Source: a bacterium | GTDB taxonomy: Bacteria > Babelota > Babeliae > Babelales > RVW-14 | Assembly: GCA_016699045.1 (NCBI GenBank) | Contig: CP064957.1 | Span: forward strand, 409,784-473,783 | DNA length: 64,000 bases | Direction: 5' to 3' | In this document: piece after piece, positions 4,965 to 48,972 of the stretch | Numbering within the stretch: the stretch's first letter is position 1 | Layout of the letters: the number at the start of each line of letters is the position of its first letter | Notes under the pieces: generated by a model | Told to the model about the DNA's origin: nothing | What the model saw: the letters and a program-made list of their open reading frames with translations, nothing else | The model's database searches: none | Made by a program: the position numbers and the translations under genes

Positions 4965-4984
4965 AAAAACTAAAGGAAATAATT

Positions 4985-7961: not shown

Positions 7962-7972
7962 AATGGATATCC

Positions 7973-18837: not shown

Positions 18838-19425
18838 CTAGCCTTGCTCTTCAAGCTGTTTTTTGCCAGCTGCCTGAAGTATTTCCACACAAGCAACATG
18901 ACCTTTCAATTCAGCAAATTGCAAAGGTACTTGGCCATCATTATTCGCAAGAGTAACATCGGCACCATGTTGCATTAGCTCTAAAATACATTCAATATGA
19001 CCTTTTGCTGCTGCATGATGCAAAGGTGTATTGCCGTAGCAGTCTTGCACATTGACATTAGTAAGCGGTCTTTTAAGAAGCTCTTCCAAGCAAATAATAT
19101 AGCCCTTGCGAGCGACCATATGAAGCAGCGTACCCTGATCGCACTCTAGAACATCGGCATCAGCACCATGAACTAAAAGTACTCTCACACACTCAGCCTC
19201 GCCATTAATAACAGCCAGGGACAAAGCTGTATCATCATCCACGTTCTTAGCATCAACATTAATCCCAGGAATTTGTAGATGCTTCTTAACGCTTTTCAAA
19301 TCACCCCGCCAAGCAGCATCGATTAGATCCAACTCAGCCTCTGACGCTTTTTCAGCCGCTGGCATAGCATTGGTTGCACAAGCTAACGCAAGTAAAAATG
19401 ATCCTAAAAATTTTTTCTTCATCAC
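18838..19425 (-). CDS. Secreted ankyrin-repeat protein
   Basis: Signal peptide MMKKKFLGSFLLALACATNAMPA. About four ANK repeats (TALSLAVINGEAECVRVLLVHGADAD, TPLHHAAAKGHIECILELMQHGADV, and others). Confidence 0.9.
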   Translation of the reverse strand: MMKKKFLGSFLLALACATNAMPAAEKASEAELDLIDAAWRGDLKSVKKHLQIPGINVDAKNVDDDTALSLAVINGEAECVRVLLVHGADADVLECDQGTLLHMVARKGYIICLEELLKRPLTNVNVQDCYGNTPLHHAAAKGHIECILELMQHGADVTLANNDGQVPLQFAELKGHVACVEILQAAGKKQLEEQG

Positions 19426-20516: not shown

Positions 20517-21464
20517 ATGCTTCTTATCGTTCCATTCTTTTTTATTGCCTTTCTCAGTATGCCACAGCTGCATTGCGCCGCCAACAAAGCAGAAAAGCCA
20601 GAAGATGGTAAAATAGCCATTCTGCACAACTTAAAAATTATTACCTATTTTTATAACCAATATGACAGACAAGAATCGCTTTTTAATGTAATTGTAACAA
20701 TCAAACAATTTATGACAGACGAAGAAATGTCGTCAGCACTATTTCCAAAACTGGGGCTGGGACCTAGCTTTCGGCAACAAGAAATTGACGAACTTGATAC
20801 ATTAGCATCCTTTCAACTGGATGGAGAAAAAAATCTTACTCCCCAAGAAACACCATCTTTTATTCAAGCTCTTACTATTCTCAAAGGAAGATTTTATTGC
20901 ATAAACAGTGATCTTTCAGAATTAGGAACAATGAACCGTGGCGATCGAGCATGGACGCAAAGCGTAATCAACCAAATTATAGAGAACATTAATAATGTTC
21001 TTCAGAGTTACCAGTACACCAGCAAATATAAAAATGCTATCATTGAAAGCATAAAAACTTTGTGGAGATTTCATACATACGCTCAGTCACATCCAACATT
21101 GCTTAAGTTGTTTCAGCAAATCAATTATTTCATTCGTTGCATAGCAACACCTTTAGAGCTCCTGCCACGGTTAGGCTTAGGACCAAATTTTACCAGTCAA
21201 GAAATAGACCTGCCGATCACTACGCCATTTGAAACTGATAATCAGGCATATACCAGCTTGATCAAGCAACTTAGAATCATCAAAAGAAATTTCTTACTCC
21301 TACAAAAAAAAGTCCGTTCATCAAAACATTATCTTTTGGCAGAGCAACAAAAAGATATCGAAAACCATATCGAAAATATACTAACATCAGTGAGCGAGAT
21401 TCTTACTCAAAATGACCTAGCAATACTGAATGTACAATTGAGCAGCATGAACTTTAATTATTAG
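20517..21464 (+). CDS. Hypothetical secreted protein, two-module member of a local paralog family
   Basis: Signal peptide MLLIVPFFFIAFLSMPQLHCAA. Two internal modules each contain LFPKLGLGPSFRQQEIDELD / LLPRLGLGPNFTSQEIDLP and ALTILKGRFYCI / LRIIKRNFLLLQKKV. Confidence 0.55.
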   Translation: MLLIVPFFFIAFLSMPQLHCAANKAEKPEDGKIAILHNLKIITYFYNQYDRQESLFNVIVTIKQFMTDEEMSSALFPKLGLGPSFRQQEIDELDTLASFQLDGEKNLTPQETPSFIQALTILKGRFYCINSDLSELGTMNRGDRAWTQSVINQIIENINNVLQSYQYTSKYKNAIIESIKTLWRFHTYAQSHPTLLKLFQQINYFIRCIATPLELLPRLGLGPNFTSQEIDLPITTPFETDNQAYTSLIKQLRIIKRNFLLLQKKVRSSKHYLLAEQQKDIENHIENILTSVSEILTQNDLAILNVQLSSMNFNY

Positions 21465-21550
21465 CAAGAACGCCACTCGAATTGAATAAATATTTTCAAA
21501 GTTTATAATCATAATCTGAAATCCTAACAATACCAACCCTCACCAAACTA

Positions 21551-22141
21551 TTGATAGAAAGACAACAGATGAATCGCATGATTTATATTTTATTGATCGC
21601 ATTTTTCAGCATAAAAACTCTTGTTGGAGCGGCAACAGAAACACATCAAAAAAAAGATTTTAAGACTACCATCTCGCTCAGCATGAAAACTATTCGCGAT
21701 TTTGATTTAAATTGCCTTCCTAAGACCACAAATAAAATAATGGACTTATTTGTCAAAATTCAACTGTTTATTGAAGAAGCAGATATTCACGGAAACAAAA
21801 AGTTATTTAAAAAGCTCAACATGGGGACAAGTTTTTCCCAAGAAGATTTGGACGATATAGATCTCCTCCCTCAACAATTTGAAAAGGACGTTACTCCAAA
21901 AAACAAAGAAAGTTTTTTGTATTTCATTAAAGCAATAAAAATTATCAAAAATAATTTCCATCTTTTACAAAAAAATATATCTCTAGCAGATTTTTTATCC
22001 TCTACAGAAAAAGAATGGCTCAACGATCAGATTGCAGAAATTATAGGTTTAGCAGGCACCATCCTCTACGGGGCTGAATTAGGGCGGAGAGTAGCAATAA
22101 TAAAGCTCAGATCCCAACAACAAAGTTTCCCTGCATCATGA
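21551..22141 (+). CDS. Hypothetical secreted protein, single-module paralog of 20517..21464
   Basis: Contains LFKKLNMGTSFSQEDLDDIDLLP and AIKIIKNNFHLLQKNI. Signal peptide at the internal start MNRMIYILLIAFFSIKTLVGAA (21569). The stop overlaps the mvaD start (ATGA). Confidence 0.55.
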   Translation: MIERQQMNRMIYILLIAFFSIKTLVGAATETHQKKDFKTTISLSMKTIRDFDLNCLPKTTNKIMDLFVKIQLFIEEADIHGNKKLFKKLNMGTSFSQEDLDDIDLLPQQFEKDVTPKNKESFLYFIKAIKIIKNNFHLLQKNISLADFLSSTEKEWLNDQIAEIIGLAGTILYGAELGRRVAIIKLRSQQQSFPAS

Positions 22142-23112
22142 AAAAGAACACCGTGTCTGTAACGACCACCGCCAACATCGCTCTCATAAAATATTGGGGC
22201 AAGCGCGACGAACGGCTCATGCTGCCAGCCAAAAGTAGTCTTTCTGTGGGACTTTCAGCACTCACAACGACAACAGAATTTGAAACAGCAGAGCACGACA
22301 AGATCGTAACAACAGAGCACCACCAATCAAATTTTGAAAAAAAAATTATGAACTTTGTCAACGAGTTACGCCGTGATTACGGTATTACCCAACCAATCAA
22401 AATCACCACACACAATCACTTTCCAACGGCAGCCGGCCTTGCTAGCAGCGCGAGTGGCTTTGCAGCTCTTACACTCGGTTTGAATAAATTATTTGATCTC
22501 AAACTCGGCAAGCAAGAACTTTCTCAACGCGCACGCTTGGGCTCAGGCTCTGCCGCTCGCTCAGTCCTTGGTGGCTTTGTTGTGTGGCATAAAGGCACTC
22601 TTGCAAACGGAAACAATTGCTTTGCCGAACAATTGTACGATGCCAACCATTGGCCAACATTACGCATTTTGGTGGTAGTCGTTGATGCATCAATAAAAAA
22701 AATGAGTTCACGAGACGGCATGCGCTTAACCGTTACCACCAGCCCATCATTTAACACCTGGTGCACAGAATCTGAAAAACGCATCAGTGCCATGCACCAA
22801 GCGATTGCAAAACGCGATTTAGAACAGGTCGGGATGTTAGCAGAAGCTGACTGGCACGGAATGTATAAGTCCATGCGCGATACACAACCACCACTCGAGT
22901 ATCTTTCAGGCGCATCGTGGGTAGTTATTAAAACGGTCCAGCGGCTGCGCGCTGCCGGCATACTCTGCTACTTTACCACCGACGCCGGCCCCAATGTTAA
23001 AATTTTGTGTGAAGAACGCGATGCGGCAATTATCGAACAAACACTCATGGCATTAAACGAAGTAAACAACATTATCCGTAATCGCATTGCATGTGAGCCA
23101 ATAATCACATGA
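22138..23112 (+). CDS. mvaD: Diphosphomevalonate decarboxylase
   Basis: TTTANIALIKYWGKRDERLMLPAKSSLSV and the GHMP motif PTAAGLASSASGFAAL, about 324 aa. Confidence 0.9.
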   Translation: MKKNTVSVTTTANIALIKYWGKRDERLMLPAKSSLSVGLSALTTTTEFETAEHDKIVTTEHHQSNFEKKIMNFVNELRRDYGITQPIKITTHNHFPTAAGLASSASGFAALTLGLNKLFDLKLGKQELSQRARLGSGSAARSVLGGFVVWHKGTLANGNNCFAEQLYDANHWPTLRILVVVVDASIKKMSSRDGMRLTVTTSPSFNTWCTESEKRISAMHQAIAKRDLEQVGMLAEADWHGMYKSMRDTQPPLEYLSGASWVVIKTVQRLRAAGILCYFTTDAGPNVKILCEERDAAIIEQTLMALNEVNNIIRNRIACEPIIT

Positions 23113-24185
23113 TTACCATTCACACGCCCGGCAAACTGATGCTCGCGGGCGAATGGAGCGTTCTTGAACCAGATAATCGCTGCATCGTTCTTCCTATCAA
23201 TCGTTTTGCAATCTGTCAGATTCAAGAAGCAACAGAATCAACACTATCAGCACCAACGCTGGGCATTGCCAATGCAATAATTACGTACGAAAATTATGCA
23301 TACAAAATTGCATCGAACGACTCACAACTTTTTATGGCACAAGCGGTACTCAACACCACATTGCGTTTTTTAAACGAACACAAGGTCACACTCAAAAAAT
23401 TTAATCTCACCATCAATACCGACCAATTTTTTTATCATCAACAAAAACTCGGCTTTGGCAGCAGTGCTGCCGTGTGCGTTGGCATAACACGCGCGTTACT
23501 TACGTTGCATCAATTTATTGCAGACGATCTTACTATTTTCAAACTAGCAACGCTGGCACATTATCACGCACAAAAAAAAATCGGCAGCGGGTTTGATATC
23601 GCTGCGTCAACGTACGCCCAGCCACTCAGCTACCAGCGCTTTGATGCCGCATGGCTTGCCACACAAAGAACCGATTCGATTAAAAAAATTATAGAACAAC
23701 CATGGCCAGGGCTGATCATCAAGCCAATCACACTGCCGCAAAAGTTTCATATGTGCGTCGGCTTCACCGGCGTAAGCGCTTCAACAACCACCCTTGCGCA
23801 GCGCATTTTACATTTTAAAAATGAGCATACCGAACAATACCAAAACTGGTGCACGACAACCAACAAAATTATTCTTGAACTAGAAACAGCTCTTGAAAAT
23901 AATAAACAACAAACAATTATTGATTTAATTAATCAACAACAAAAATCACTGCGAAATTTGTCAGATTTGTCTGACGCACAAATTGACATTCCCGTCATGA
24001 GTTCGCTTATTGCCGCGGCGCAAAAGCACGGCACTGGTGCCAAATTTTCTGGCGCTGGTGGAGGCGACTGCGTGATTGCAATCTGCTTTGAAAATAACCG
24101 CGAAAAAAACATCAATCACGAGTGGGCGGCAATGGGTATTAAAATTATCAACACGGTAATTTTGAACCCTATGAAAAAAAATTAA
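23109..24185 (+). CDS. mvaK2: Phosphomevalonate kinase (ERG8/MvaK2 type)
   Basis: HTPGKLMLAGEWSVLEP, GHMP motif KLGFGSSAAVCVG, C-terminal KFSGAGGGDCVIA. ATGA overlap with mvaD. Confidence 0.85.
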   Translation: MITIHTPGKLMLAGEWSVLEPDNRCIVLPINRFAICQIQEATESTLSAPTLGIANAIITYENYAYKIASNDSQLFMAQAVLNTTLRFLNEHKVTLKKFNLTINTDQFFYHQQKLGFGSSAAVCVGITRALLTLHQFIADDLTIFKLATLAHYHAQKKIGSGFDIAASTYAQPLSYQRFDAAWLATQRTDSIKKIIEQPWPGLIIKPITLPQKFHMCVGFTGVSASTTTLAQRILHFKNEHTEQYQNWCTTTNKIILELETALENNKQQTIIDLINQQQKSLRNLSDLSDAQIDIPVMSSLIAAAQKHGTGAKFSGAGGGDCVIAICFENNREKNINHEWAAMGIKIINTVILNPMKKN

Positions 24186-24240
24186 ATCTCTCTTAAAAAG
24201 TATCTACATTTACTTGACCAGAGCAGTTTTTTGTATCTTT

Positions 24241-24360
24241 CCGTTCGTGCTGAGCCTGTCGAAGCATCTGAACGGGCTCTTTTTTGTCTGTCTGAAAAGC
24301 CGAGAAGAATCGAAGCCCACTTCTATCCCGCCATACTTCGACAAGCTCAGCACGAGCGGG
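24241..24360. repeat. Pair of inverted extragenic hairpin elements (locus 1)
   Basis: Unit A is ccgttcgtgctgagcctgtcgaagcatctgaacgg (24241..24275). Unit B, inverted, is cccgccatacttcgacaagctcagcacgagcggg (24327..24360). The cores are complementary at 22/24 positions and both differences are transitions. Confidence 0.6.
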
Positions 24361-24594
24361 ATCATGATGCAAAAACAGAAAAATGTATGCAATCTTTTGG
24401 AATATACAAGTGTGGCCATCGACGGTGAGTAAAGGGTCAATCATTTAATTTACAAAAATCATAATGATCGAAAGAGCGTTATATAAACAGAAAACGTACC
24501 CCTACTTTTCTAAATAATATTCTTGGTGTAGCATAAAGAACGCTTGCTAGCCACCTGCCCTTATTTAATGTAATAATCAAACAAGGAGTTTTTC

Positions 24595-25344
24595 ATGTCA
24601 TTATTTTTCTATTGCCTCGTTATCGTCATTTTTGGCGTGGGGGTACTTTTTTACGTTCGCAGCACACAAGAAACATCAATACAGAAAACAACCACACGCG
24701 CACTGCGCACGTTTGGCGATCTCAAATATCCGTTTTCACTGCCAGCACTGCTGTATACTTACAATGCTCTTGAGCCACACATCGACGAAGCAACCATGAA
24801 TATTCATCACACCAAACATCATCAAGCGTACATCAACAGCTTGAATGAATGCCTTGAAAAACATCCAGAATTTCAAAGCAAGTCACTCGTTGATTTAATT
24901 GCTCACACCAAAACATTACCAGAAAGTTTACTCAAGGTCGTTGAAAATCATGGTGGTGGACATGCCAATCATTCAATGTTTTGGCTGATTATGTCACCAC
25001 AAGGCGGCGGACAACCTGAAGGCAAATTAGCACAAGCAATTGATAAGACATTTGGTTCTTTTGAAAATTTTAAGAAATTGTTTATTGAAGCAGCAAAAAC
25101 ACGTTTTGGCAGCGGTTGGGCATGGTTATGTGTTGATAGCGATAATAATTTGGTGATCACATCAACCGCCAATCAAGACAATCCCATGATGGATGGATTA
25201 ATCCCTGTTCTTGGCTTGGACATATGGGAACATGCGTATTATTTAAAATACCAAAACAAACGCATTGATTATGTTAACACGTGGTGGAATGTAATCAACT
25301 GGCCTGTGGTTGCTGAGTATTTTGCAAAGGCATGCTCAAAGTAA
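24595..25344 (+). CDS. Fe/Mn superoxide dismutase with N-terminal membrane anchor/signal extension
   Basis: FSLPALLYTYNALEPHIDEATMNIHHTKHHQAYINSLN and DIWEHAYYLKYQNKR are SOD core motifs. A ~45-aa extension contains the hydrophobic helix FFYCLVIVIFGVGVLFYV. Confidence 0.9.
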   Translation: MSLFFYCLVIVIFGVGVLFYVRSTQETSIQKTTTRALRTFGDLKYPFSLPALLYTYNALEPHIDEATMNIHHTKHHQAYINSLNECLEKHPEFQSKSLVDLIAHTKTLPESLLKVVENHGGGHANHSMFWLIMSPQGGGQPEGKLAQAIDKTFGSFENFKKLFIEAAKTRFGSGWAWLCVDSDNNLVITSTANQDNPMMDGLIPVLGLDIWEHAYYLKYQNKRIDYVNTWWNVINWPVVAEYFAKACSK

Positions 25345-26242
25345 CCGGCATCACAAAAAAATTTTGCGCTTGTAAAGCAGTAGCGACTTCGTGTTGCTGC
25401 TGCTTATTTTTTGTCAACGCAACAAGCGCCCCGCCAGCACCAGCTCCCGTCACTTTAACACTCAGCGCGCCGGCAGTAAGAGTCTTTTTGATAATAGCTT
25501 CAAGGTCCGCATTTGAAACACCAAGCTCTTTCAATAACTCATGATTCATGGTCATGCACATGCTCAATGCCGTAAGATTGCCTTGCTCAACAGCTTGCAC
25601 ACCCAACGAAAAAAGTTTCTCATAATCAGCACACAAGCGAGCAAAACATTCAGACCGCCTAGCACGATAACGTTGAACTGCAACCACTGCACCACTCGTT
25701 TGACTACGCATGCCACTGTCAATCACAACAAAGTGCAGGTCTGCTCGTGATCCAAAAAAATGTAGGTCTTTGCCTTTTTCAAAAATAAAAAAGCCACCAA
25801 ACGTTGCTGCCGTGTTATCAATCCCACTCGGGTTGCCGTGCGCTATTTTCTCAGCCTGCAAAGCAGCCATACTGATAGCATTATCATCAAGATTGAGATT
25901 ACATGTTTTGTTGATAGCTCGCGCAGTTGCCACCGCAGCTGCCGCACTGGAACCGGTACCGCCCGACATTACCACTAAATCGCCCGACAACGTAACTTCA
26001 AGCGATTGCGTGATGCCCAAAAAATTGATTATCGCTGATAAAAAATGATTCAGTTTTTCAGCCGAACATTTCAATGAATTATCAGCAAAACAACGCTGGT
26101 CAACAACGCGCGACGGACCACTAATAATTTTTGCAACCGCATGGGTTTGCTGCGGCAATGCAAATACAAGAGCTGGCAAGCCATACACAACAAAATGCTC
26201 ACCAAACAAAATTATTTTACCGTATCCACCCACATTACTCAT
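25295..26242 (-). CDS. mvk: Mevalonate kinase
   Basis: GKIILFGEHFVVYG, GHMP motif SGGTGSSAAAAVATARA, KVTGAGAGGALVAL. The 3' end overlaps the SOD gene by 50 nt (convergent). Confidence 0.9.
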   Translation of the reverse strand: MSNVGGYGKIILFGEHFVVYGLPALVFALPQQTHAVAKIISGPSRVVDQRCFADNSLKCSAEKLNHFLSAIINFLGITQSLEVTLSGDLVVMSGGTGSSAAAAVATARAINKTCNLNLDDNAISMAALQAEKIAHGNPSGIDNTAATFGGFFIFEKGKDLHFFGSRADLHFVVIDSGMRSQTSGAVVAVQRYRARRSECFARLCADYEKLFSLGVQAVEQGNLTALSMCMTMNHELLKELGVSNADLEAIIKKTLTAGALSVKVTGAGAGGALVALTKNKQQQHEVATALQAQNFFVMPVTLSMPLQNTQQPQAS

Positions 26243-26643
26243 GCGCGATGCTCCGGCACAAATTTAAGACCGTAATGAATGATGCCATTCAGTCCAGAAA
26301 CATAATATTTGCGCAGAGCTGCTCTTAAAGGCATACCAATGATCAGCTCTTCAAAATCAACATCAGCCAATTGCGTCATAATACGCGGACCATCTGCTAG
26401 TTGAACGAAACCAACACAGTACGGCTCATACATTTTATGCTCACGCGGCGCATGCATGACCTGCGTAAACGACAAGAGCGTCGCACAATGACTCAACTCA
26501 ACCGGCTTAAATTCCGTGCTTGCACACGTGCATAAATATTTTTTTGGATAAAATTTTTGATAACACACAGCACATTGCACCCCCATCAAGCGATATCGTT
26601 GAGGATACAAGCGCCAATCGATAATCGGACTATCGCTAAACAT
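26239..26643 (-). CDS. DUF35 Zn-ribbon/OB-fold protein (archaeal thiolase/HMG-CoA synthase scaffold type)
   Basis: RYRLMGVQCAVCYQKFYPKKYLCTCAST (rubredoxin-like ribbon) followed by the OB-fold segment PYCVGFVQLADGPRIMTQLADVDFEELIIGMPLRAALRKYY...IIHYGLKFVP. 4-nt overlap with mvk. Confidence 0.8.
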   Translation of the reverse strand: MFSDSPIIDWRLYPQRYRLMGVQCAVCYQKFYPKKYLCTCASTEFKPVELSHCATLLSFTQVMHAPREHKMYEPYCVGFVQLADGPRIMTQLADVDFEELIIGMPLRAALRKYYVSGLNGIIHYGLKFVPEHRA

Positions 26644-26701
26644 ACGCCACTCCTTATTTTTCTTGATCGATAAATATCACCAAAGTATAGGCGTATCTTT
26701 A

Positions 26702-26731
26702 TAAAAAAAAAGCCTGCGAATGCAATTCGCA
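26702..26731 (-). terminator. Rho-independent terminator downstream of ankyrin gene 26762..27265
   Basis: Stem tgcgaat / attcgca (26713..26729) with a 3-nt loop, followed on the minus strand by a run of T (complement of the A-run at 26703..26711). Confidence 0.5.
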
Positions 26732-26761
26732 AGCTCTCAATACATAACATTTCTATACAAT

Positions 26762-27265
26762 TTATTTATTACCAAAATTTTCAAGATCAGTAATCAACTC
26801 AGCAAGTTCTGCCGGCATAAGGCCTTCAAAATCTTTCTTTAAAACACTCGCCCCAGCATAAATTAGTGTTGCTTGAATTTCAACAAACTTGACTGCCACC
26901 GCAATATGCAAAGGCGTCCATCCACAACTTTTTTCTGGCTTATTAATAAAATAATGAAATTCGTCATCTGAAAGACATGCTCGCGCCCGTTTTATAAGAT
27001 TTTCTACCAATGAAAGATTTCCATCGTACACAGCACTATGAAGGATTGTAAGATCATTCTCGTTAGTTTCTAACAATAAAAAACGATCTCGTTCACGTGG
27101 CTCTAATTCGCGTCGCTCTAAAAAGGTCTGCTCAAAATTTTGCGAAAACTTTTGTATACAACCTTCAAAGTCTCCATACATTCGGCCCGTAAATTCTCGA
27201 CCAGCAAAAAGCAAACTCTGCGAACAAAGAAAAACAACTATCAATTTGACGTAAAAGTTACGCAT
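26762..27265 (-). CDS. Secreted ankyrin-repeat protein
   Basis: Signal peptide MRNFYVKLIVVFLCSQSLLFA. ANK-like repeats TILHSAVYDGNLSLVENLIKR and TPLHIAVAVKFVEIQATLIYAGASV. Confidence 0.8.
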   Translation of the reverse strand: MRNFYVKLIVVFLCSQSLLFAGREFTGRMYGDFEGCIQKFSQNFEQTFLERRELEPRERDRFLLLETNENDLTILHSAVYDGNLSLVENLIKRARACLSDDEFHYFINKPEKSCGWTPLHIAVAVKFVEIQATLIYAGASVLKKDFEGLMPAELAELITDLENFGNK

Positions 27266-27380
27266 AGAAAAATCCCTTGTTTCTTAGCTGTGTTTATAGA
27301 GTGAAGGCACATATTTTTTCCGTGCAAAAACTTTATCAAACAATGAGTTATTGTCAAACAACAAAAAATTATGGCATAAG

Positions 27381-27408
27381 AAAAGGCCGCTAAAAAAGCG
27401 GCCTTTTC
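27381..27408 (-). terminator. Hairpin terminator downstream of 27460..29256
   Basis: aaaaggccgc-taaaaaa-gcggcctttt: stem ggccgc (27385..27390) / gcggcc (27398..27403) flanked by A and T runs. Confidence 0.5.
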
Positions 27409-27459
27409 TTATTTTGCTAGCGAATTTAAAATTCACTCAAACTTAGTTAAAATTGGCGC

Positions 27460-29256
27460 TTATTTTTTGCCTTTTTTACCTTTGTATTCTTTCTTACCTT
27501 GGTATTTGTTGTATTTGTTGTATTTGCCACCTTGACCGCCTTGAGCTGCCATTGCTTGAAGATTTTTAACTTGGTCCATATAATACTGAATTGGCTGCAA
27601 CGCTGCCTGAACTAATGGATTATTTTGCGACTTAATATTCTTCAAATTTTGTAAATCTTCTTGTACTACAGTCACTACGGCAACTTGCTCATCAAGAGAT
27701 GTATTTGCAGCGTTTGGCATCATTTTAGCTACCACAGCAATATCAGTCAAAGTCTTAACAATCAACTGTGGCATTAGAGCAACAGTATTTCTCGCAGCCT
27801 GAATTGTTGGATTTTGATTTAAAGCAGCTTGAACTGATGAATCACTTGAAACCTCAGGAACAGCCAAAGCAGCATTAACCGCTTGAACTGCCGGTACTAC
27901 AGCAACCATATTTTTTACATTATTCCAATCCGAGATGTTAACTACTAGGCTGGCCAATGTTGCAATGTCAGTCAATGCTTGCGTAATTTGTTGAGCTGAC
28001 GCTGCTGATGTTCCAGAAACTTGAGTAACACCTTGTGGCACAACAAGAGCCGCTCTAATTGCTGGCGTCAAAGCAGCCACAACTGATGGATCATTAGCCA
28101 CAACCGGATCTGTTAAATCGTTGTTAACTGTTTGAACGGCTGACGTCATAGGAGCACCGGTAACTCCTGCATTAACAAGAACACTCAACGCAGCAATATC
28201 GCTCAATGTCCGCGTAACCGCTGGATTTGCAACTGGAGCTGGACCTGCCACTACGACTGGCGGCACTGGGTCAACAGAAACAACTACTGGAGGTACTGGA
28301 GTACCTGTTGGCGTTACTGGACTTACTGCAATCCTACCTTGTAAAGCAGTAATTGCTTGACTCAAAGCAGTTTGAATACTTGAATCCAACGATGGCATAC
28401 CTTGGAATGCTTGCAACGCATTAAGAGCTAATTGAGCTGGCGAAGAACCTGGAGCAGGGTTTGCCAACGCACTCAAAGCCGCTACTATTTTATCAGCTGC
28501 TACTTTTTCAGCTGCTGTTTTTTCAGCCAATATTTGAGCTGCCGCTTGTGTTGCTTGAGCTGCTGCTTGAGCTGCTTTATCTGCTGCTTGAGCTGCTTTT
28601 TCAGCTGCTGCTTGAGCTGCTGCCGTTGCATCAGGCGTTCCAGTCGAAGCTGCTACCGCCGCTGCTTGCGTCGCTGTCGCTGCTGCTTGCGTTGCAACCG
28701 CTGCTGCTTGTGTTGCTGCTGGCGTTCCTGTCGCTGCAGCTGTTACTGCTGCTTGTGTTGCTGCAGCTGCTGCTGTCGTTGCAGCTACTGCTGCTGCTGC
28801 CGACGTACCAGTCGCTGCTGATTCAGCTACTGCTTGCGTTGCCGAAGCTGCTGCTTGCGTTGCTGCTTGAGTTGCTGCCGCTGCTACCGGTGCCGAAGGA
28901 GTTGACCCCACTGCCGTCAAGCTTGCAATTACGGGAGTAATTGCTTTTTGATCAGCTTTTGATAACAATGGGGAAGAACTTAAAAATTGAAGCAATGTCT
29001 GTAATTGAGTAACACTCGCTGCATGTTCGCTTATCAATTGCATTAGCAAATTAGCAAACGCTTGCTGCGTTTGAGCAGTAAAAGTACCCGCGCTATTAGA
29101 AGTAGCCAACGATGTAACATTATTTATCAATGTACTATCAATCGATTGTCCACTGAATTGATTGATCGAATTTTGAACTGACGCATCATCTGCGTAAGCC
29201 ATGCTGGTTGCCAACATCGCAACCCCAGCAAGTGATTTTATAAACTTCTTATTCAT
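27460..29256 (-). CDS. Secreted Ala/Thr/Gln-rich repeat protein with Lys-rich C-terminal tail (family A, member 1)
   Basis: Signal peptide MNKKFIKSLAGVAMLATSMAYA. Conserved module AGTFTAQTQQAFANLL...SSSPLLSKADQKAITPVI. ~138-aa A/T/Q tract. Three ~65-aa LTDIA..L..LV repeats. Tail GGKYNKYNKYQGKKEYKGKKGKK. Confidence 0.6.
   Translation of the reverse strand: MNKKFIKSLAGVAMLATSMAYADDASVQNSINQFSGQSIDSTLINNVTSLATSNSAGTFTAQTQQAFANLLMQLISEHAASVTQLQTLLQFLSSSPLLSKADQKAITPVIASLTAVGSTPSAPVAAAATQAATQAAASATQAVAESAATGTSAAAAVAATTAAAAATQAAVTAAATGTPAATQAAAVATQAAATATQAAAVAASTGTPDATAAAQAAAEKAAQAADKAAQAAAQATQAAAQILAEKTAAEKVAADKIVAALSALANPAPGSSPAQLALNALQAFQGMPSLDSSIQTALSQAITALQGRIAVSPVTPTGTPVPPVVVSVDPVPPVVVAGPAPVANPAVTRTLSDIAALSVLVNAGVTGAPMTSAVQTVNNDLTDPVVANDPSVVAALTPAIRAALVVPQGVTQVSGTSAASAQQITQALTDIATLASLVVNISDWNNVKNMVAVVPAVQAVNAALAVPEVSSDSSVQAALNQNPTIQAARNTVALMPQLIVKTLTDIAVVAKMMPNAANTSLDEQVAVVTVVQEDLQNLKNIKSQNNPLVQAALQPIQYYMDQVKNLQAMAAQGGQGGKYNKYNKYQGKKEYKGKKGKK
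28483..28896 (-). repeat. Low-complexity GCTGC/TTG-rich DNA encoding the A/T/Q tract
   Basis: Imperfect reiteration of gctgc(t/c)gc(t/a)tg(a/c/t)g units. All frames on the opposite strand are also open, giving spurious Cys/Leu-rich ORFs. Confidence 0.7.
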
Positions 29257-29276
29257 GATTAAATTCTCCTATTTTT

Positions 29277-30074
29277 TTAATTTTGATCAGCGGATTGATC
29301 ATCTACAACTGAGTCTTCTGTCTCGGCATTGTCTGCTGCTACAGTTGTACCTGATGTGGCAGTAGTGGTACTTTTGGTTACTTTTTTCCCTTTACCTTTT
29401 TTACGTATTTTTTTGCCTGTTTTTTGACTACCAACATTGCCTACAGCTTTTTTACCAGCTTTTTTCACTTTGCCTACTTTAACTTTTCCGGCACGAGCTT
29501 TCTTAATATTCTTAGCGACTTGAGCTTTCGTAGAAACTTGTTTCTTACCAACGGAAGGTTGCCCCAACGTTGGAACATTTTGCATAGCTTGTGGCAAATT
29601 CGGTATCAATGTCGAGATAACATATTGTTGTTGTGCTTGTGCCAAAAGAGGCGAAGTACTTGCTTGTACTAACAAATTGCGCATTGCAGTTGTAAGATCA
29701 TTATGTTCTTTTAATACTTGTGCAACGCCACTACCAACCGCACGATGCGTTTTACCGGTAAAATCGCCAGCATCTGCTTCTGAGGCCAATTTAACCAATT
29801 CATTTATTTTATCAGCGTGCGATTTGTTACTTAAATCTTGCAATGACTTTTGAATGCTTTCATCGGTAAGATCTTTGGTAGAGGCTTTTGCCGAACCAGC
29901 CGGTTTAACAGCGACTAGCTTTTTAACTTTAACTACCTTCTTAGCTTTTTTCTTACCCGTTTTACCCGTCTTGACTGTCTTGACTGTCGAGTCTGATTTA
30001 GCTGCAAACATGGCACTTGATGCCAACGTAAGGGCTATTAACAAGAGCCCACTCAAACTTATCTTCTTCATCAT
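29277..30074 (-). CDS. Secreted Lys-rich protein (family A, member 2)
   Basis: Signal peptide MMKKISLSGLLLIALTLASSAMFA. Module AGDFTGKTHRAVGSGVAQVL...STSPLLAQAQQQYVISTLIPNL. Lys-rich blocks after the signal peptide and near the C-terminus, plus an acidic end. Confidence 0.6.
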   Translation of the reverse strand: MMKKISLSGLLLIALTLASSAMFAAKSDSTVKTVKTGKTGKKKAKKVVKVKKLVAVKPAGSAKASTKDLTDESIQKSLQDLSNKSHADKINELVKLASEADAGDFTGKTHRAVGSGVAQVLKEHNDLTTAMRNLLVQASTSPLLAQAQQQYVISTLIPNLPQAMQNVPTLGQPSVGKKQVSTKAQVAKNIKKARAGKVKVGKVKKAGKKAVGNVGSQKTGKKIRKKGKGKKVTKSTTTATSGTTVAADNAETEDSVVDDQSADQN

Positions 30075-30274
30075 CGATCTCCTTATTATTTCGATTCCTC
30101 AGCTTTCGCTGTAATCTCTTCCACTTCCTTTACTACTTTCTTACTTATTTACTTGTCGCTCATAATGAGATGCTTTGGTAACAGCGTAAGATTCTGTTCC
30201 TGCACCAAAGTTTAAAAAATAGCCTGCACTATGTTTCCACTCATCTCATATCTCCTCTTTTCATCATAATTCAT

Positions 30275-31549
30275 TTAATTCACACTATTCGTTTTAGGAT
30301 TTTTTTTCATCATCTTTTTGCCAATCTTGGCTCCCTTTCGAGCGCCACTTTTTTGCTGTTGAGCTTTTTTCCGTTGTTTTTTAGTGCCTACTCTTTTGCC
30401 AGGCTTGGTTGGAGTACCCGCTTGATTATCACGTACTACCACCACAGGCTTGATCTGCTCCGGTATCATGGTCGAAGAAACGTACGTTTGTTGGTCTTTA
30501 GTTAAAAGTGGAGACGTACGCGCTGCATTAAGCAAATCAAGTGTTTTCTTTGCAATATCTTTACTTTGCGTAGCAAGCGCTACCAATGCATCCGCATATG
30601 CTTGCTGCGTTGCGGTACTAAAAGCACCCGCACTAGCCCCTGCTGTTAATTTTGACAAAAAGCGCAACCGATCATCAAGCAACGGCTGTTTGCTAATACT
30701 TGCCAGCAAGCGCGTTACGCGGTCATCAGTCAATACTTGCTGCGTCACGTCTGCCGACTCAACCATTGATGCATTTGCTACCGTCGCAACCGCTGGCGAT
30801 ACACCAAGCACATTTGCTTGTTTTAAATCTTTGAATTTGTCCAACGCTGGCAATAATTGCTGGCTTACATACTGACGACGCACCTTATCCAGCAAAGGTA
30901 CATTGCCTTGCAAAACGTTTCGCATCAACTCACGCAATTGCGCTTGTGCCTGATCAGACTGACTGGCGCGTTGATCGTACAACTGAACAAGTGATTTATA
31001 AAACATATCACGAATGCCAGCATTAAGAACCACTCGCAAGCCACCCTTGGTAGAAAAGTTAGTTGGATTTGCAAGCGCTGAAAGACTTTGCAAACTATCC
31101 TGAAAGGTAGTTTTTTGTGCTGCCGCCATAACAAGACTCTTTAAAAGTCTTGGCACCATGGTTTTTGCCACATACTTTTGCTGGACCGGAGAAAGCAATG
31201 AACTCGCTTGTGCTCGAGAAAGAATCGGCAACATGGCAAGCTGCGTACCTTCAGTTGTAGCCAATTTGTTGGTAGCATCAAGTAAATTACCAAAATCAGT
31301 TTTGGTTCTAGCATTAAATGTCGCCCTACCAGAACGGTCAAGCAACAAAGATAGCGCTTGAATTTTCTGATCCACAACTGCCATAGCCCCAATTTTGGTA
31401 AAATAACTCTTAATAAGGGTATCAATATCTGCCTGACTTGCAAAATTGTCTGGAATATTAAAAGCCGCAAAAGCAACGGAATGCATTGTCAGCACAGCTA
31501 CCGCCAGCAACACACACACTTTCCTTACCATTGAGCACAATGTCGTCAT
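30275..31549 (-). CDS. Secreted protein (family A, member 3) with 2-3 copies of the family module and a Lys-rich tail
   Basis: Signal/anchor VCVLLAVAVLTMHSVAFA. Modules ...SSLLSPVQQKYVAKTMVPRL, ...VPLLDKVRRQYVSQQLLPAL and AGAFSTATQQAYADALVAL...RTSPLLTKDQQTYVSSTMIPEQ. Tail GKRVGTKKQRKKAQQQKSGARKGAKIGKKMMKK. Confidence 0.6.
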   Translation of the reverse strand: MTTLCSMVRKVCVLLAVAVLTMHSVAFAAFNIPDNFASQADIDTLIKSYFTKIGAMAVVDQKIQALSLLLDRSGRATFNARTKTDFGNLLDATNKLATTEGTQLAMLPILSRAQASSLLSPVQQKYVAKTMVPRLLKSLVMAAAQKTTFQDSLQSLSALANPTNFSTKGGLRVVLNAGIRDMFYKSLVQLYDQRASQSDQAQAQLRELMRNVLQGNVPLLDKVRRQYVSQQLLPALDKFKDLKQANVLGVSPAVATVANASMVESADVTQQVLTDDRVTRLLASISKQPLLDDRLRFLSKLTAGASAGAFSTATQQAYADALVALATQSKDIAKKTLDLLNAARTSPLLTKDQQTYVSSTMIPEQIKPVVVVRDNQAGTPTKPGKRVGTKKQRKKAQQQKSGARKGAKIGKKMMKKNPKTNSVN

Positions 31550-31680
31550 GATACTCCTTCCTTATTATTACCGCCTACTACTTACAAAAATATCAAATAG
31601 CAATTACTAATTGCAATGATTTTAGTAAAAATTATAAGAACGAAAGCATTTTCAAGAATAAAAGCCTCAAGAATAAGCAA

Positions 31681-31709
31681 TTGACAGAGGCCCGAATATC
31701 CATTACATT
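31681..31709 (+). promoter_or_regulatory. Candidate sigma70-type promoter of the HMGR-HMGCS-thiolase operon
   Basis: TTGACA (31681..31686), 17-nt spacer, TACATT (31704..31709), about 55 nt upstream of the GTG at 31764. Confidence 0.3.
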
Positions 31710-31763
31710 CCACGATATTCTTCAAATTAGAGATAAACAAGCAAGCCAAAATAGACTGATCTC

Positions 31764-33041
31764 GTGGTGGTTACATTGAAAGACAAAAACAGTCGAATCC
31801 CTGCTTTTCATAAAAAATCCCTCAGCGAGCGTTTAAAATACGTCGAAACCTTTGCCAACCTTACTCATCAAGAAATCAAAGAGCTAGAGTCGGGGGCCTC
31901 CCTTCCCATTCCTCTCGCCGAAAAAATGAGCGAAAATGTCATCTCAGTCATGTCTTTGCCTTTTGGCGTCGCCACCAATTTCATGATCAACGGTCAAGAT
32001 TATCTGATTCCAATGGTCACTGAAGAACCAAGCGTCATTGCAGCCGCCTCGCACGGCGCCAAACTCGCGCGAAATGCCGACGGTTTTACCACTAGTTGCG
32101 GCTATCCACTCATGATTGGCCAAATATTGTTAGCAAATATATCCAATTCTGCTAACGCACTCGAAGCTTTGAACAACAAAAAAAGAGAGCTCCTTGCGCT
32201 TGCCAACCAACTCGACCCCATACTGCTCGAGCATGGCGGAGGGGCAGTAGATCTGACTGCTCAAGAGCTTGTACTCAACAAAGACCTATGCCTTTCTATA
32301 AAATTGCACGTGAATGTCGGTGATGCCATGGGCGCCAACATTGTTAACACCATGACAGAATTTATTGCACCACTCATTCAAAAAGTATGCGGTGGCCTGG
32401 TCAGATTGTGTATTGTTTCAAATTTTTCTCCCGATCGCTTAGTCCACGTTACCGGCACCTGGGACCAAGAAACGCTGGGGTTACCAACTATCGATGCTAT
32501 CATACAAGCCAGTGCCTTTGCAGCAGCCGATATCTATCGAGCCGTAACACACAATAAAGGAATTATGAACGGCGTTATTGCGGTCGCGTTGGCCACCGGC
32601 AACGATACCCGGGCCATCGAAGCAGGAGCACATGGGTACGCCGCTCTCACGGGCCGCTACCAACCACTTAGCTGGTATGAAAAAAATGAAGCAGGCGATT
32701 TAGTGGGACACCTAGCAATGCCCCTACCCATCGCAACCGTTGGCGGAATAACTAAAAGTCATCCAACTGCCTGTATCGCCAGAAAAATTCTTACCATTAC
32801 CAGCGCACAAGAACTTGCCGGCGTTACTGCAGCTGTAGGACTGGCACAAAACTTTGCCGCCCTGCGTGCATTGGTAACTGAAGGAATTCAGCACGGGCAC
32901 ATGCGACTGCACAGCCAAAACATTGCCATTACCGCGGGCGCTACCGGCCAGGCTATCGACAATATTGCCCACCAAATGATCACAAAGAAAAAAATTTCAG
33001 TTGCGCATGCGCGCACACTTTTGACGAAAGGGTCCCTATGA
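31764..33041 (+). CDS. mvaA: HMG-CoA reductase, class II
   Basis: ENVISVMSLPFGVATNFMINGQDYLIPMVTEEPSVIAAASHGAK, VGDAMGANIVNTM, GNDTRAIEAGAHGYA, EGIQHGHMRLH. About 425 aa with no membrane domain. GTG start. Confidence 0.9.
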   Translation: MVVTLKDKNSRIPAFHKKSLSERLKYVETFANLTHQEIKELESGASLPIPLAEKMSENVISVMSLPFGVATNFMINGQDYLIPMVTEEPSVIAAASHGAKLARNADGFTTSCGYPLMIGQILLANISNSANALEALNNKKRELLALANQLDPILLEHGGGAVDLTAQELVLNKDLCLSIKLHVNVGDAMGANIVNTMTEFIAPLIQKVCGGLVRLCIVSNFSPDRLVHVTGTWDQETLGLPTIDAIIQASAFAAADIYRAVTHNKGIMNGVIAVALATGNDTRAIEAGAHGYAALTGRYQPLSWYEKNEAGDLVGHLAMPLPIATVGGITKSHPTACIARKILTITSAQELAGVTAAVGLAQNFAALRALVTEGIQHGHMRLHSQNIAITAGATGQAIDNIAHQMITKKKISVAHARTLLTKGSL

Positions 33042-34090
33042 TTGGTGGCATTATGGGCTACGGGGCTTACATTCCACGCTACCGAATCAGCGTTGAAAAA
33101 CTCGCACAAGCTCTTGACGACAATGCTACACAGATTATCAACTCACTAGCAATTGCCGAAAAATCAGTCCCGGGCAAAGATGAAGATAGCCTCACGATGG
33201 TCGTTGCTGCGGCAAAAAATGCTTTAAAACGGGCAACGTTACCAGCACCATCACTGCAAGCAGTTTATGTTGGCAGCGAAAGCCATCCCTACGCCGTCAA
33301 ACCTTCCGCAACAATTTTAGGTGAAGCTTTAGGGATTGGCACCAATTATATGGCTGCCGATTTTGAATTTGCTTGCAAAGGCGGCACCGCTGCCCTGCAA
33401 GCCGCTCTTGGTGTGGTTAAGGCTGGGATGGCCTCGTACGCGTTGGCCGCCGGCAGCGATACCGCTCAAGCAAAGCCAACAGATATTTTAGAATATGCCG
33501 CCGCCGCTGGGTCCGCCGCTTTTATTGTTTCAAACAATCTTGATGAAGCGTGCGCAATTGTTGAACGAACATTATCGTACAGTTCAGACACGCCAGATTT
33601 TTGGCGTCGTTCATCAGCTGCCTACCCAGAACATGGCGGACGTTTTACTGCACAACCAGCTTACTTTGCGCATGTTGTGGCGGCAACACAACAACTTTTA
33701 ACGGCACACAACCTCAAACCAACCGACATCGATCATGTTATTTTTCATCAACCAAATGGTAAATTCCCCGTGATGGCCGCCAGGCAACTTGGTTTTTCTC
33801 GGGCCCAACTGGCCAACGGCTTACTTGTTGAAAAAATGGGCAACTCGTACAGCGCTAATTCACTTTTGGGTCTTACGGCGGTACTGGACAACGCACTACC
33901 CAACCAAACTATTCTATTAGTTAGTTATGGCAGCGGCAGCGGCTGCGATGCTTTCGTAATTAAAACAACTGAAAAAATTTTATCGGTCCAAAATAAAGCA
34001 CGTCGCACCCAAGAATATTTGGCAGAAAAAAAGTATATTTCCTACGCAACATATCTTCATCATTTAACCTGCTTGTACGGTGCATTATGA
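33038..34090 (+). CDS. HMG-CoA synthase, short archaeal type
   Basis: 350 aa. GIMGYGAYIPRYRI, KDEDSLTMVVAAAKNAL, VGSESHPYAVKPSA, EFACKGGTAAL (catalytic Cys region). ATGA overlap with mvaA. Confidence 0.85.
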   Translation: MIGGIMGYGAYIPRYRISVEKLAQALDDNATQIINSLAIAEKSVPGKDEDSLTMVVAAAKNALKRATLPAPSLQAVYVGSESHPYAVKPSATILGEALGIGTNYMAADFEFACKGGTAALQAALGVVKAGMASYALAAGSDTAQAKPTDILEYAAAAGSAAFIVSNNLDEACAIVERTLSYSSDTPDFWRRSSAAYPEHGGRFTAQPAYFAHVVAATQQLLTAHNLKPTDIDHVIFHQPNGKFPVMAARQLGFSRAQLANGLLVEKMGNSYSANSLLGLTAVLDNALPNQTILLVSYGSGSGCDAFVIKTTEKILSVQNKARRTQEYLAEKKYISYATYLHHLTCLYGAL

Positions 34091-35244
34091 ACATTGCGAT
34101 TATCGGCATTGGCCAAACAAAATTCGGTGAATTGTGGGAAAGTTCGCTGCAAGATTTACTTGCATACAGCCAACTTGCAGCCCTCAAAGATGCTAATATT
34201 TCAGCACAAGAAATTGAAGCACTGGTGGTCGGCAACATGTGTGGAGAAAGTACCGGAGGTCAAGTACATCTTGGCGCACTAGCTGCACATATTTTAAATC
34301 TCAATGTTCCAAGTATGCGCGTTGAAGGAGCCTGTGCATCAGGTGCGTTAGCACTGCAACAAGGTATAGCACTTATTGAAGCCGGCAAGGCAGAAGTAGT
34401 ACTAGTCAGCGGCGTTGAAAAATTAACTGATGTTGATGCCGGCACACTGGCAACGAGTATGATTGGCGCCAGCTTACAGGAAACAGATCATTTTGTGGGC
34501 CTTACTTTCCCAAGCCTTTTTGCACTCATCACGCGTTTATATTTTAATGAGCACGGCATTACGCGTAAGCACCTTGCACACGTGAGCGTTAAAAATCATT
34601 TGCACGCAAGCTTAAACCCCAACGCACATTTTACCAAAGACATTTCTCTTGAAACGGCGCTACACGCACCAATGGTCGCCGACCCACTGGGTCTTTTTGA
34701 CTGCGCACCAGTTTCTGACGGCGCTGCATCGATCATTATCACAACACCAGAATTTGCGAAACGCAAAGGCATCAAGCCGGTGTTGATCATTGGCTCTGGC
34801 GTTGCCACTGATTCATTAATGTTTGGCGAACGCACGACACTCACATCTTTTGTCGCCACAAAATTAGCCGCACATAGTGCTTATCAACAAGCTGGCATTG
34901 AGCCGGAAAATATTGATCTGGTTGAAGTGCACGATGCATTTACCATGGCCGAAATTATGGCGCTTGAAGATTTAGGTTTTTTTGAACCGGGACAAGCAGC
35001 TTACGCAACACAAAAAGGCACCACAAAATTCAATGGCACCCTACCCGTCAACATGTCTGGTGGACTCAAAGCACAAGGACATCCCGTTGGCGCCACTGGC
35101 CTTGCACAAATTATTGAACTTATCAGACAGCTACGCGGCACTGCCGGCAAACGACAAATTGCCAATGCACGCACTGGCCTTGCACACAACATGGGCGGCA
35201 TTGGCTCTACCGTAGCGGTTCATATTCTTGCAAGTAACCATTGA
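34087..35244 (+). CDS. Acetyl-CoA C-acetyltransferase (thiolase), archaeal/SCP-x-like type
   Basis: MNIAIIGIGQTKFGE, RVEGACASGALAL (active-site Cys), NMSGGLKAQGHPVGATG, NMGGIGS. ATGA overlap with the HMGCS gene. Confidence 0.85.
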   Translation: MNIAIIGIGQTKFGELWESSLQDLLAYSQLAALKDANISAQEIEALVVGNMCGESTGGQVHLGALAAHILNLNVPSMRVEGACASGALALQQGIALIEAGKAEVVLVSGVEKLTDVDAGTLATSMIGASLQETDHFVGLTFPSLFALITRLYFNEHGITRKHLAHVSVKNHLHASLNPNAHFTKDISLETALHAPMVADPLGLFDCAPVSDGAASIIITTPEFAKRKGIKPVLIIGSGVATDSLMFGERTTLTSFVATKLAAHSAYQQAGIEPENIDLVEVHDAFTMAEIMALEDLGFFEPGQAAYATQKGTTKFNGTLPVNMSGGLKAQGHPVGATGLAQIIELIRQLRGTAGKRQIANARTGLAHNMGGIGSTVAVHILASNH

Positions 35245-35340: not shown

Positions 35341-35982
35341 ATGAAGAAAACATTTCACTACTCGCTAATTTTTGCTGTAATATTTGCCAGCACCGCCATA
35401 GCAGCAGGAACTGCTACAGAAAAAGAATTTTCCATCTGCCCAAGCATTCCCGATGACTTTTGCCTTGAAGACAAACAACTGATCACGGCGGTAAAAAAAG
35501 GGCTTCACGAAGCATTAGAACGAATTCTTCTTTTCCATAAAAATGTTAATCTTGAATATGAAGAAGGCTCGTTGCTTCATCATGCAGCGAGTGAAGGACA
35601 TCTTAAATGTGCTGAATTACTCGTTAATAACGGTGCTGATATTTCTGCCACCACACCACACGGCGGCACACCTCTCCATTGCGCTGCATGGAAAGGCTAC
35701 ACAGACATCGTACAATTTCTTTTGAATAATAATGCACCAATTAATGCAATTAATTTCATTGAACAAGCAACACCATTACATTGGGCAGCAAAACAAAATC
35801 ACACTAATTGCATAGCGCTGCTTCTAGCTGCCGGCGCCAACCCAACACTAAAAAATGCCACAAACAAAACAGCAGCAGATTACGCAGAAGAACTCGGTCA
35901 CCAAGAGCTTGCAGCCCTACTACGCACAGCAGAAATAACATGGCAAAAAGAACATAAGCAAAAAGCGTGTACCATATCATGA
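35341..35982 (+). CDS. Secreted ankyrin-repeat protein
   Basis: Signal peptide MKKTFHYSLIFAVIFASTAIAAG. ANK repeats SLLHHAASEGHLKCAELLVNNGADI, TPLHCAAWKGYTDIVQFLLNNNAPI, TPLHWAAKQNHTNCIALLLAAGANP. Confidence 0.9.
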   Translation: MKKTFHYSLIFAVIFASTAIAAGTATEKEFSICPSIPDDFCLEDKQLITAVKKGLHEALERILLFHKNVNLEYEEGSLLHHAASEGHLKCAELLVNNGADISATTPHGGTPLHCAAWKGYTDIVQFLLNNNAPINAINFIEQATPLHWAAKQNHTNCIALLLAAGANPTLKNATNKTAADYAEELGHQELAALLRTAEITWQKEHKQKACTIS

Positions 35983-39145: not shown

Positions 39146-39331
39146 ACGATCATCCTTTTTTATTAGCCACACATTACACTCACAAAAAGCGTTTATTACT
39201 AACTGCTTGCTGCACAATGTAACGGAAAAAATATGCTTGAGCAAACTACAATCTCACAACTCACAAATAACGAGAGGGGCACTCTTTTTCGAATGCCCCT
39301 CAGACAAAAATTCTCTTTAAATGTTAAAAAA

Positions 39332-48962: not shown

Positions 48963-48972
48963 CAACAAGACA

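Follow-up and report, generated by a model that had tools for sequence, protein, structure and literature searches.

The 64,000-nucleotide stretch of contig CP064957.1 analysed here (assembly GCA_016699045.1, positions 409,784 to 473,783; hereafter the window) encodes all six enzymes that lead from acetyl-CoA to isopentenyl diphosphate (IPP) by the mevalonate (MVA) pathway: an acetoacetyl-CoA thiolase, 3-hydroxy-3-methylglutaryl-CoA (HMG-CoA) synthase (HMGCS), HMG-CoA reductase (HMGR), mevalonate kinase (MVK), phosphomevalonate kinase (PMK) and diphosphomevalonate decarboxylase (MDD). Together these very probably constitute the native, functional isoprenoid-precursor pathway of an intracellular bacterium of the Babeliales, with a layout in three units that results from secondary break-up. 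A preliminary description, made by a model from the sequence, had proposed a complete pathway from acetyl-CoA to IPP in a bacterium, and profile scans of the open reading frame (ORF) map with NCBIfam and Pfam models, judged by the curated family cut-offs, bear this out, with all six enzymes lying where it placed them.

Host organism and published context

The source organism, whose genome lies on a contig of about 1.45 Mb, is a member of the Dependentiae (TM6), within the Babeliales, as is clear from its TypA, from its MDD and from conserved synteny. At 93% identity TypA matches a Ca. Babeliales protein, and the named proteins among its best 120 matches come from Babeliales, Dependentiae, TM6 or an unclassified “bacterium”, the sole exception being one metagenome-assembled genome (MAG) labelled as Epsilonproteobacteria. 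The named matches of MDD are likewise all of the Dependentiae type, and the Babeliales MAG GCA_019746485.1 encodes seven proteins with 70–84% identity to those of the window in a locally conserved order. Bacterial housekeeping genes, including those for MurG, TypA and UvrC, flank the pathway on the same contig.

Hoshino & Gaucher 2018 (PMC6107057) describe the Dependentiae as the one bacterial phylum that fully lacks the methylerythritol phosphate (MEP) pathway and uses MVA only, with acetoacetyl-CoA thiolase and HMG-CoA synthase of archaeal type. Because this state was published in 2018, the central observation is not new, and the novelty implied by the preliminary description was overstated: a complete MVA pathway with an archaeal-type front end is a published property of the phylum, of which the window is a further and mostly ordinary instance. 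The NCBI annotation of these proteins is already correct. The window agrees with the 2018 account in phylum, in its archaeal-type thiolase and HMGCS and in possessing MVK, PMK and MDD. It differs in affinity, as the two condensing enzymes clustered in the 2018 data with those of the candidate phyla radiation (CPR), whereas their nearest relatives here are Diapherotrites-like DPANN archaea. It also goes further in that a class II HMGR, a DUF35 protein and MVK travel with the thiolase and HMGCS in one syntenic block; HMGR-II is reported there as common in DPANN, and the part of the paper to which we refer contains no discussion of gene order or of its fragmentation in Dependentiae.

Archaeal-type condensing enzymes

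The 350-aa HMGCS (33038..34090, forward strand) belongs to the archaeal type, scoring 429 bits against TIGR00748 (cut-off 353) and 477 bits against NF003274, whereas it reaches 114 bits against the bacterial MvaS model TIGR01835, for which the cut-off is 360. Its best match in the PDB is chain 6ESQ_I (369 bits) of the condensing complex of Methanothermococcus thermolithotrophicus (6ESQ/6ET9), followed at a distance by PhlA (172 bits) and by bacterial MvaS structures (57–62 bits). The catalytic tetrad E-C-H-N is intact within the motifs GSESHPY, FACKGG, FHQPNG and GNSYS. The thiolase (34087..35244, forward strand) is an SCP-x-like acetoacetyl-CoA thiolase of archaeal type (NF004720, 465 bits, cut-off 420) that retains the motifs CxS, HDxF and GH as CAS, HDAF and GHP; its PDB matches are led by 7YVY (303 bits) with 6ESQ_A a close second (298 bits), while the PhlC chains reach 113–125 bits. 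These results uphold the assignment made in the preliminary description, in which the condensing enzymes were of archaeal rather than MvaS/MvaE type, and the low resemblance to MvaS and Thl in both models and structures shows that the two are not ordinary bacterial enzymes.

The third component, a DUF35 protein combining a zinc ribbon with an OB fold, had been mentioned earlier as a separate protein and is now located at 26239..26643 on the reverse strand (PF01796, 58.6 bits), preceded by an AAGGAG ribosome-binding site. Its best PDB match is 6ESQ_E (79.8 bits), against 46.9 bits for PhlB. The zinc ribbon contains four cysteines (C24-x2-C27-x10-C38-x-C40), with a second knuckle that is CxC and not CxxC, a variant common to other Dependentiae and to the DPANN-like archaeon at locus L092. 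The gene sits 7.4 kb from the thiolase on the opposite strand, so that the adjacency of the three condensing genes found in the relatives L084 and L011, where DUF35 adjoins the thiolase, is absent here; such adjacency is typical of the condensing-module family and not mechanistically required. The likeness to the Methanothermococcus complex thus consists in each of its three families being represented by a protein of its own, with best or near-best structural matches and conserved catalytic residues. The differences are that the host here is bacterial, that the distant DUF35 gene is coupled to MVK and that the second knuckle is altered.

HMG-CoA reductase and the lower route

The reductase (31764..33041, forward strand) is a class II enzyme, as had been described, with 392.8 bits against TIGR00532 (cut-off 260) and 45.5 bits against the class I model. 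Its best PDB match is the Pseudomonas mevalonii enzyme 1QAX (371 bits), and the alignment shows its catalytic residues to be conserved, with Glu, Lys, Asp and His in positions equivalent to E83, K267, D283 and H381 of the P. mevalonii enzyme.

Since MVK, PMK and MDD all score above their cut-offs and the models for alternative kinases and decarboxylases fall far below theirs, the lower half of the pathway is the classical route, again as proposed. MDD (22138..23112, forward strand) scores 296.6 bits against TIGR01240 (cut-off 171) and 126 bits against the phosphomevalonate decarboxylase model (cut-off 475); it most resembles E. faecalis MDD (5V2L, 207 bits) and retains the motifs SSASG, GSGSA and DAGPN. 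PMK (23109..24185, forward strand) is of the GHMP type (TIGR01220, 223 bits, cut-off 166; PDB matches 3K17 and 1K47), and MVK (25295..26242, reverse strand) scores 207 bits against TIGR00549 (cut-off 163) and also has PDB matches. GHMP and catalytic motifs are kept in all three, and scores against the mevalonate-3-kinase and bisphosphomevalonate decarboxylase models lie far under the respective cut-offs. The 64-kb window contains none of the archaeal steps of the isopentenyl phosphate kinase (IPK), AcnX or UbiD type; for IPK, whose absence had been noted earlier, both the domain scan and tblastn were negative. The best PDB match of MVK is the Leishmania major enzyme 2HFS (154 bits), with methanogen, streptococcal and staphylococcal kinases at about 93 bits, which hints that the MVK type of Dependentiae and DPANN may be related to the trypanosomatid enzyme.

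This part of the pathway resembles that of Gram-positive cocci, which likewise pair a class II HMGR with a GHMP-type PMK and MDD, and the best PDB matches of these three are enzymes of Pseudomonas, Enterococcus, Listeria or Streptococcus. In contrast to the cocci, the condensing enzymes are neither MvaS nor thiolase II, there is no thiolase-reductase fusion and no adjacent type 2 isopentenyl diphosphate isomerase (IDI-2), and the genes do not form one operon.

Composition and selection

All seven genes are under purifying selection, with dN/dS values against the closest relatives of 0.05–0.21 (HMGCS 0.05, thiolase 0.07, HMGR 0.08, MDD 0.13, MVK 0.19, PMK 0.21), compared with 0.28–0.34 for neighbouring genes that encode proteins of no recognised family (ORFans). 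The pathway genes are intact here and conserved in relatives, and thus not decayed.

The pathway genes had been judged by eye to be more GC-rich than their neighbours. Numerically this holds, at 0.460 against 0.402 for ankyrin and unknown genes across the window, neighbours included, and 0.425 for housekeeping genes. The excess arises at the second codon position (GC2 0.419 against 0.351, p=0.0004), where it reflects amino-acid composition, and not at the third (GC3 0.421 against 0.403 in housekeeping genes, p=0.37); it is the ankyrin and ORFan genes that are AT-rich outliers, with a GC3 of 0.347. As GC3 is the same as in housekeeping genes, composition gives no hint of recent transfer, and the GC difference was rejected as a mark of recent horizontal acquisition.

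Gene layout

The pathway genes are arranged in three predicted transcription units, within which every junction is a four-nucleotide ATGA overlap: ORFan/MDD, MDD/PMK, DUF35/MVK (26239–26242), HMGR/HMGCS and HMGCS/thiolase. Unit 1, on the forward strand, would comprise a 189-aa ORFan, MDD and PMK; unit 2, on the reverse strand, DUF35 and MVK, with a terminator-like hairpin as well as the ribosome-binding site upstream; and unit 3, on the forward strand, HMGR, HMGCS and the thiolase, preceded 55 nt upstream of HMGR by a promoter-like site, TTGACA-17-TACATT (31681..31709, forward strand), that is a consensus match only. Inspection of N-termini and domain scans agree with the preliminary description that the units are parted by genes for a superoxide dismutase (SOD), an ankyrin protein and ORFans with signal-peptide-like N-termini.

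Upstream of MDD, on the forward strand, lie two ORFans, unmatched in Pfam and NCBIfam, whose N-termini resemble signal peptides, one of 315 aa (20517..21464) with two copies of LGP[SN]F and one of 189 aa (21569..22141); they are paralogs that share the LGP[SN]F-type repeat. The larger is conserved in the close relatives L086 and L087, as are the arrangement of the smaller and its overlap with MDD. The ORF whose end overlaps the start of MDD has its own start at ATG 21569, giving 189 aa, and not at TTG 21551 as was thought previously; a promoter-like site lies upstream at 21482–21509. Because its stop codon overlaps the start of MDD, the 189-aa ORFan (dN/dS 0.28) is probably co-transcribed with MDD and PMK. 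It was considered as a missing enzyme of the pathway, such as an isomerase, and rejected on the grounds of its signal-peptide-like N-terminus and its paralogy to the neighbouring ORFan.

Between PMK and MVK is an Fe/Mn SOD gene, identified by Pfam/NCBIfam domain scan (24595..25344, forward strand), the product of which may be membrane-anchored or exported because it has a hydrophobic N-terminal segment. SOD and MVK are convergent, with 3′ ends that overlap by 50 nt, an overlap kept in L081 and L087, and a terminator-like hairpin for SOD with a 13-bp stem (25375–25405) falls within the MVK coding sequence. The close relative L087 lacks the roughly 300 bp between PMK and SOD (24186–24490). This interval holds a single-copy 27-nt inverted repeat (24241–24267 and 24333–24359, 89% complementary, with 65 nt between the arms) together with an 83-aa reverse-strand ORF without a family, and had no match in a scan against Rfam; it may be what is left of a small mobile element, or may encode a structured RNA.

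The DUF35 gene is separated from an upstream ankyrin gene with a signal-peptide-like N-terminus (26762–27265, reverse strand) by a strong terminator-like hairpin with a 14-bp stem followed by a T-run (26708..26738, reverse strand), which would mark where DUF35-MVK begins as a unit of its own. Three paralogous ORFans with signal-peptide-like N-termini, also on the reverse strand (27460–29256, 29277–30074 and 30275–31549), fill the remaining gap to HMGR; the last encodes a 424-aa protein whose ortholog adjoins HMGR in L081.

Synteny with related loci

Loci for comparison were obtained by exact look-up of homologs. A contiguous HMGR-HMGCS-thiolase-DUF35-MVK block is present both in L011, within the Dependentiae clade, and in the Iainarchaeum contig L062 (DPANN), while in L084 MVK and PMK lie near an HMGR-HMGCS-thiolase-DUF35 run. 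In L081, an 80%-identical relative, HMGR-HMGCS-thiolase is followed by four inserted unknown genes and then by DUF35-MVK and SOD; in the window the DUF35-MVK-SOD segment is inverted and lies on the other side of HMGR. The order ORFan-MDD-PMK-SOD is conserved in L086 and L087, and MDD is solitary in distant Dependentiae. The scatter into three units is on this comparison secondary, and not a record of three independent acquisitions. The older state would have been a contiguous HMGR-HMGCS-thiolase-DUF35-MVK block with MDD and PMK located separately; it would have been split between thiolase and DUF35 when genes for predicted secreted proteins were inserted there, and the DUF35-MVK-SOD segment would afterwards have moved by inversion to the far side of HMGR. 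A break at that point would therefore account for the coupling of the putative scaffold gene, DUF35, to the translation of MVK.

Two uncharacterised genes of L084, a further Babeliales genome, have no homolog in the window: a 403-aa HD-like protein (3823–5034) that overlaps the start of PMK, and a 336-aa protein of no family (7848–8858) that overlaps the start of HMGR. Being translationally coupled to MVA genes, both are candidates for missing pathway functions. The contig L011 (CAZSLQ010000009.1) is labelled “uncultured Pseudomonadota bacterium”, with its block inside the Dependentiae clade at 100% bootstrap, and P0350, labelled “Epsilonproteobacteria bacterium”, has a TypA 71% identical to that of the window; both are probably mislabelled Dependentiae MAGs.

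Acetyl-CoA supply and the fate of IPP

The AMP-forming acetyl-CoA synthetase (Acs) noted earlier near the pathway is well supported (37259..39244, reverse strand; NF001208, 879 bits, cut-off 657; TIGR02188, 856 bits, above cut-off). The ORF extends to 39244, and ATG 39145, the start given originally, is probably the true one. TM6 genomes are reported to lack pyruvate dehydrogenase and other acetyl-CoA-forming enzymes (Yeoh et al. 2016; PMC4776705), which makes Acs a plausible source of acetyl-CoA for the pathway; the main text of that paper mentions neither mevalonate nor isoprenoids.

Flux through the pathway would then begin with the conversion of acetate to acetyl-CoA by Acs. Three acetyl-CoA would be condensed to HMG-CoA by a thiolase/HMGCS pair held together by DUF35, a complex that we infer by analogy with the solved one of Methanothermococcus, in which coupling of the two enzymes pulls the unfavourable thiolase step. 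The class II HMGR would reduce HMG-CoA to mevalonate, from which MVK, the GHMP-type PMK and MDD would form IPP. The window also encodes MurG, an M23 peptidase and MiaB, which point to undecaprenyl phosphate for peptidoglycan and to tRNA isopentenylation as the probable sinks of IPP; a further match to an amidase is weak and below cut-off. Nudix, FMN_dh and AA_kinase domains are absent from all window ORFs of at least 120 aa, and tblastn with IDI-1, IDI-2 and IPK found no match in the window, in accord with the earlier statement that it contains no IPP isomerase.

Relationship to DPANN archaea and alternative explanations

Trees were built by neighbour-joining with 200 bootstraps from 66 taxa; they are unrooted, with a sampling biased to query-like sequences and including one CPR sequence. 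The Dependentiae are monophyletic, with 100% support in the concatenated tree and 95–100% over all trees, and group with the DPANN-like archaeon L092 and Diapherotrites-type sequences to the exclusion of 61 others, which include other DPANN and the CPR sequence. For Dependentiae with L092 the support is 100% in the concatenated tree and 89, 100, 97 and 99% for HMGCS, thiolase, DUF35 and MVK respectively; a first HMGCS tree had placed the Dependentiae with Diapherotrites sequences at 98%. The grouping is supported by a one-residue deletion, that which turns CxxC into CxC in the second DUF35 zinc knuckle, found only in Dependentiae and L092. Both L092 and the Diapherotrites contig of P0091 are archaeal, since they carry AcnX, UbiD, IPK or an intein-containing DHH nuclease. 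The DPANN clusters (L062, L092 and the contig of P0091) share with Dependentiae the order HMGR-HMGCS-thiolase-DUF35(-MVK), at identities of 45–53% for the first four proteins and 34% for MVK that equal those between distant Dependentiae. They differ in additional genes, IDI-2 and a polyprenyl synthase standing beside the block in L092 and in the contig of P0091, and in their lower routes: L092 combines its upper block with MVK, AcnX, UbiD/UbiX and IPK, the archaeal route, in place of PMK and MDD. The 625-kb contig of P0091, from a closely related DPANN lineage, has almost the same upper block with a GHMP kinase and an MDD-like decarboxylase of classical type.

Two explanations would deny that the pathway is a native one for making mevalonate. 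It is very improbable that the trio of HMGCS, thiolase and DUF35 has been repurposed as a PhlACB/MucABC-like Friedel-Crafts acyltransferase. Bacterial complexes of these three families with roles outside the MVA pathway do exist (PMC12960953), and DUF35 is unlinked here from the other two genes. In the repurposed complexes, however, the E-C-H-N residues and the thiolase motifs are mutated (PMC12960953), the tetrad in both PhlA and MucA, whereas here the tetrad is intact and HDxF is retained; the archaeal complex outscores the Phl chains two- to threefold, and the genes are joined by overlaps to HMGR and to MVK. The Phl-type alternative was rejected on the catalytic residues and relative scores. 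The notion that the cluster was acquired recently as an island, or is archaeal DNA that has been mis-assembled or mis-binned, is scarcely credible, even if the HMGCS is 48–55% identical to many archaeal homologs among the matches listed and overall GC exceeds that of neighbouring genes. The GC3 cannot be told from that of housekeeping genes, the pathway is interleaved with ankyrin and ORFan genes typical of Dependentiae and flanked on one contig by MurG, TypA and UvrC, and the same genes with the same neighbours recur in several independent Dependentiae assemblies.

How a native pathway came to have an archaeal-type front end is a separate matter. We consider it possible, at somewhat short of even chances, that an Iainarchaeia/Diapherotrites-like DPANN lineage and the ancestor of the Dependentiae exchanged the whole HMGR-HMGCS-thiolase-DUF35-MVK block, which in the latter would have replaced the MEP pathway and arrived without IDI-2. 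Ancient vertical inheritance, with a CPR-like or LUCA-like state (LUCA, last universal common ancestor) kept in Dependentiae, seems to us rather unlikely. It would fit the clustering of the two condensing enzymes with CPR and the ancestral archaeal-type gene set argued for in PMC6107057, the monophyly of the Dependentiae genes and their fully ameliorated GC3, and were the root to lie on the stem of the Dependentiae, all archaea would become their sister group, with the DPANN lineage at its base. Against it stand the strength of the grouping with L092 and Diapherotrites-type sequences and the restriction of the zinc-knuckle deletion to Dependentiae and the L092 group. No CPR label appears among the named proteins of the top 120 HMGCS matches, most of which are nameless, and sequences from other bacterial MAGs occur elsewhere among the archaeal ones, so that transfers of this block do occur.

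Several points weigh against the reading of the locus as a native, functional pathway dispersed by secondary break-up. The unlinked DUF35 gene and its CxC knuckle mean that complex formation is not guaranteed; the transcription units follow from gene overlaps and consensus promoter or terminator matches alone, and the order of the rearrangements from only four Dependentiae loci. Domain searches and tblastn over the window and a further 167 kb of loci from related Dependentiae revealed neither an IPP isomerase (IDI-1 or IDI-2) nor an IPK, which leaves the supply of dimethylallyl diphosphate (DMAPP) as the single real gap in the scheme. The 64-kb window contains no MEP gene, with genome-wide absence of that pathway taken from PMC6107057.

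Other genes in the window

Three separate families of paralogous ORFans, all without a match in Pfam or NCBIfam and with N-termini that resemble signal peptides, occur at 20517–22141 (315 and 189 aa), 27460–31549 (598, 265 and 424 aa) and 47752–49926 (223, 185 and 332 aa); the 598-aa protein consists of 24% alanine, and its gene has a GC2 of 0.51 and a GC3 of 0.26. The 64 kb also encode five ankyrin-repeat proteins (18838–19425, 26762–27265, 35341–35982, 44172–44936 and 53361–53795), at least two of which (167 and 213 aa) begin with a segment like a signal peptide, in keeping with a role as effectors of an intracellular parasite of eukaryotes. Upstream of the locus are genes for a Fic/Doc-domain protein (3389–4183), a LexA-like repressor with a helix-turn-helix and an S24-peptidase domain (6334–7008) and a toxin-antitoxin-like HEPN/nucleotidyltransferase-substrate-binding protein (10235–10678). 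Rfam and tRNA scans of the window returned only two tRNAs, both far from the locus.

Conclusions

As intracellular parasites of protists with reduced genomes, the Dependentiae have given up most biosynthesis, and the pathways that they keep show what the host cannot supply. A full and selectively maintained MVA pathway is among those kept, and its front end is an archaeal three-protein condensing machine. If the block was indeed exchanged en bloc, two lineages that both depend on hosts would have passed genes across the domain boundary, and the DMAPP of the Dependentiae would have to come from the host or be made by an isomerase not yet recognised. What has been published on isoprenoid biosynthesis in the phylum stands unchanged, and what is added to it is modest but concrete: the question of where DMAPP comes from, a tie by synteny and phylogeny to one particular DPANN lineage and an account of the scattered layout.

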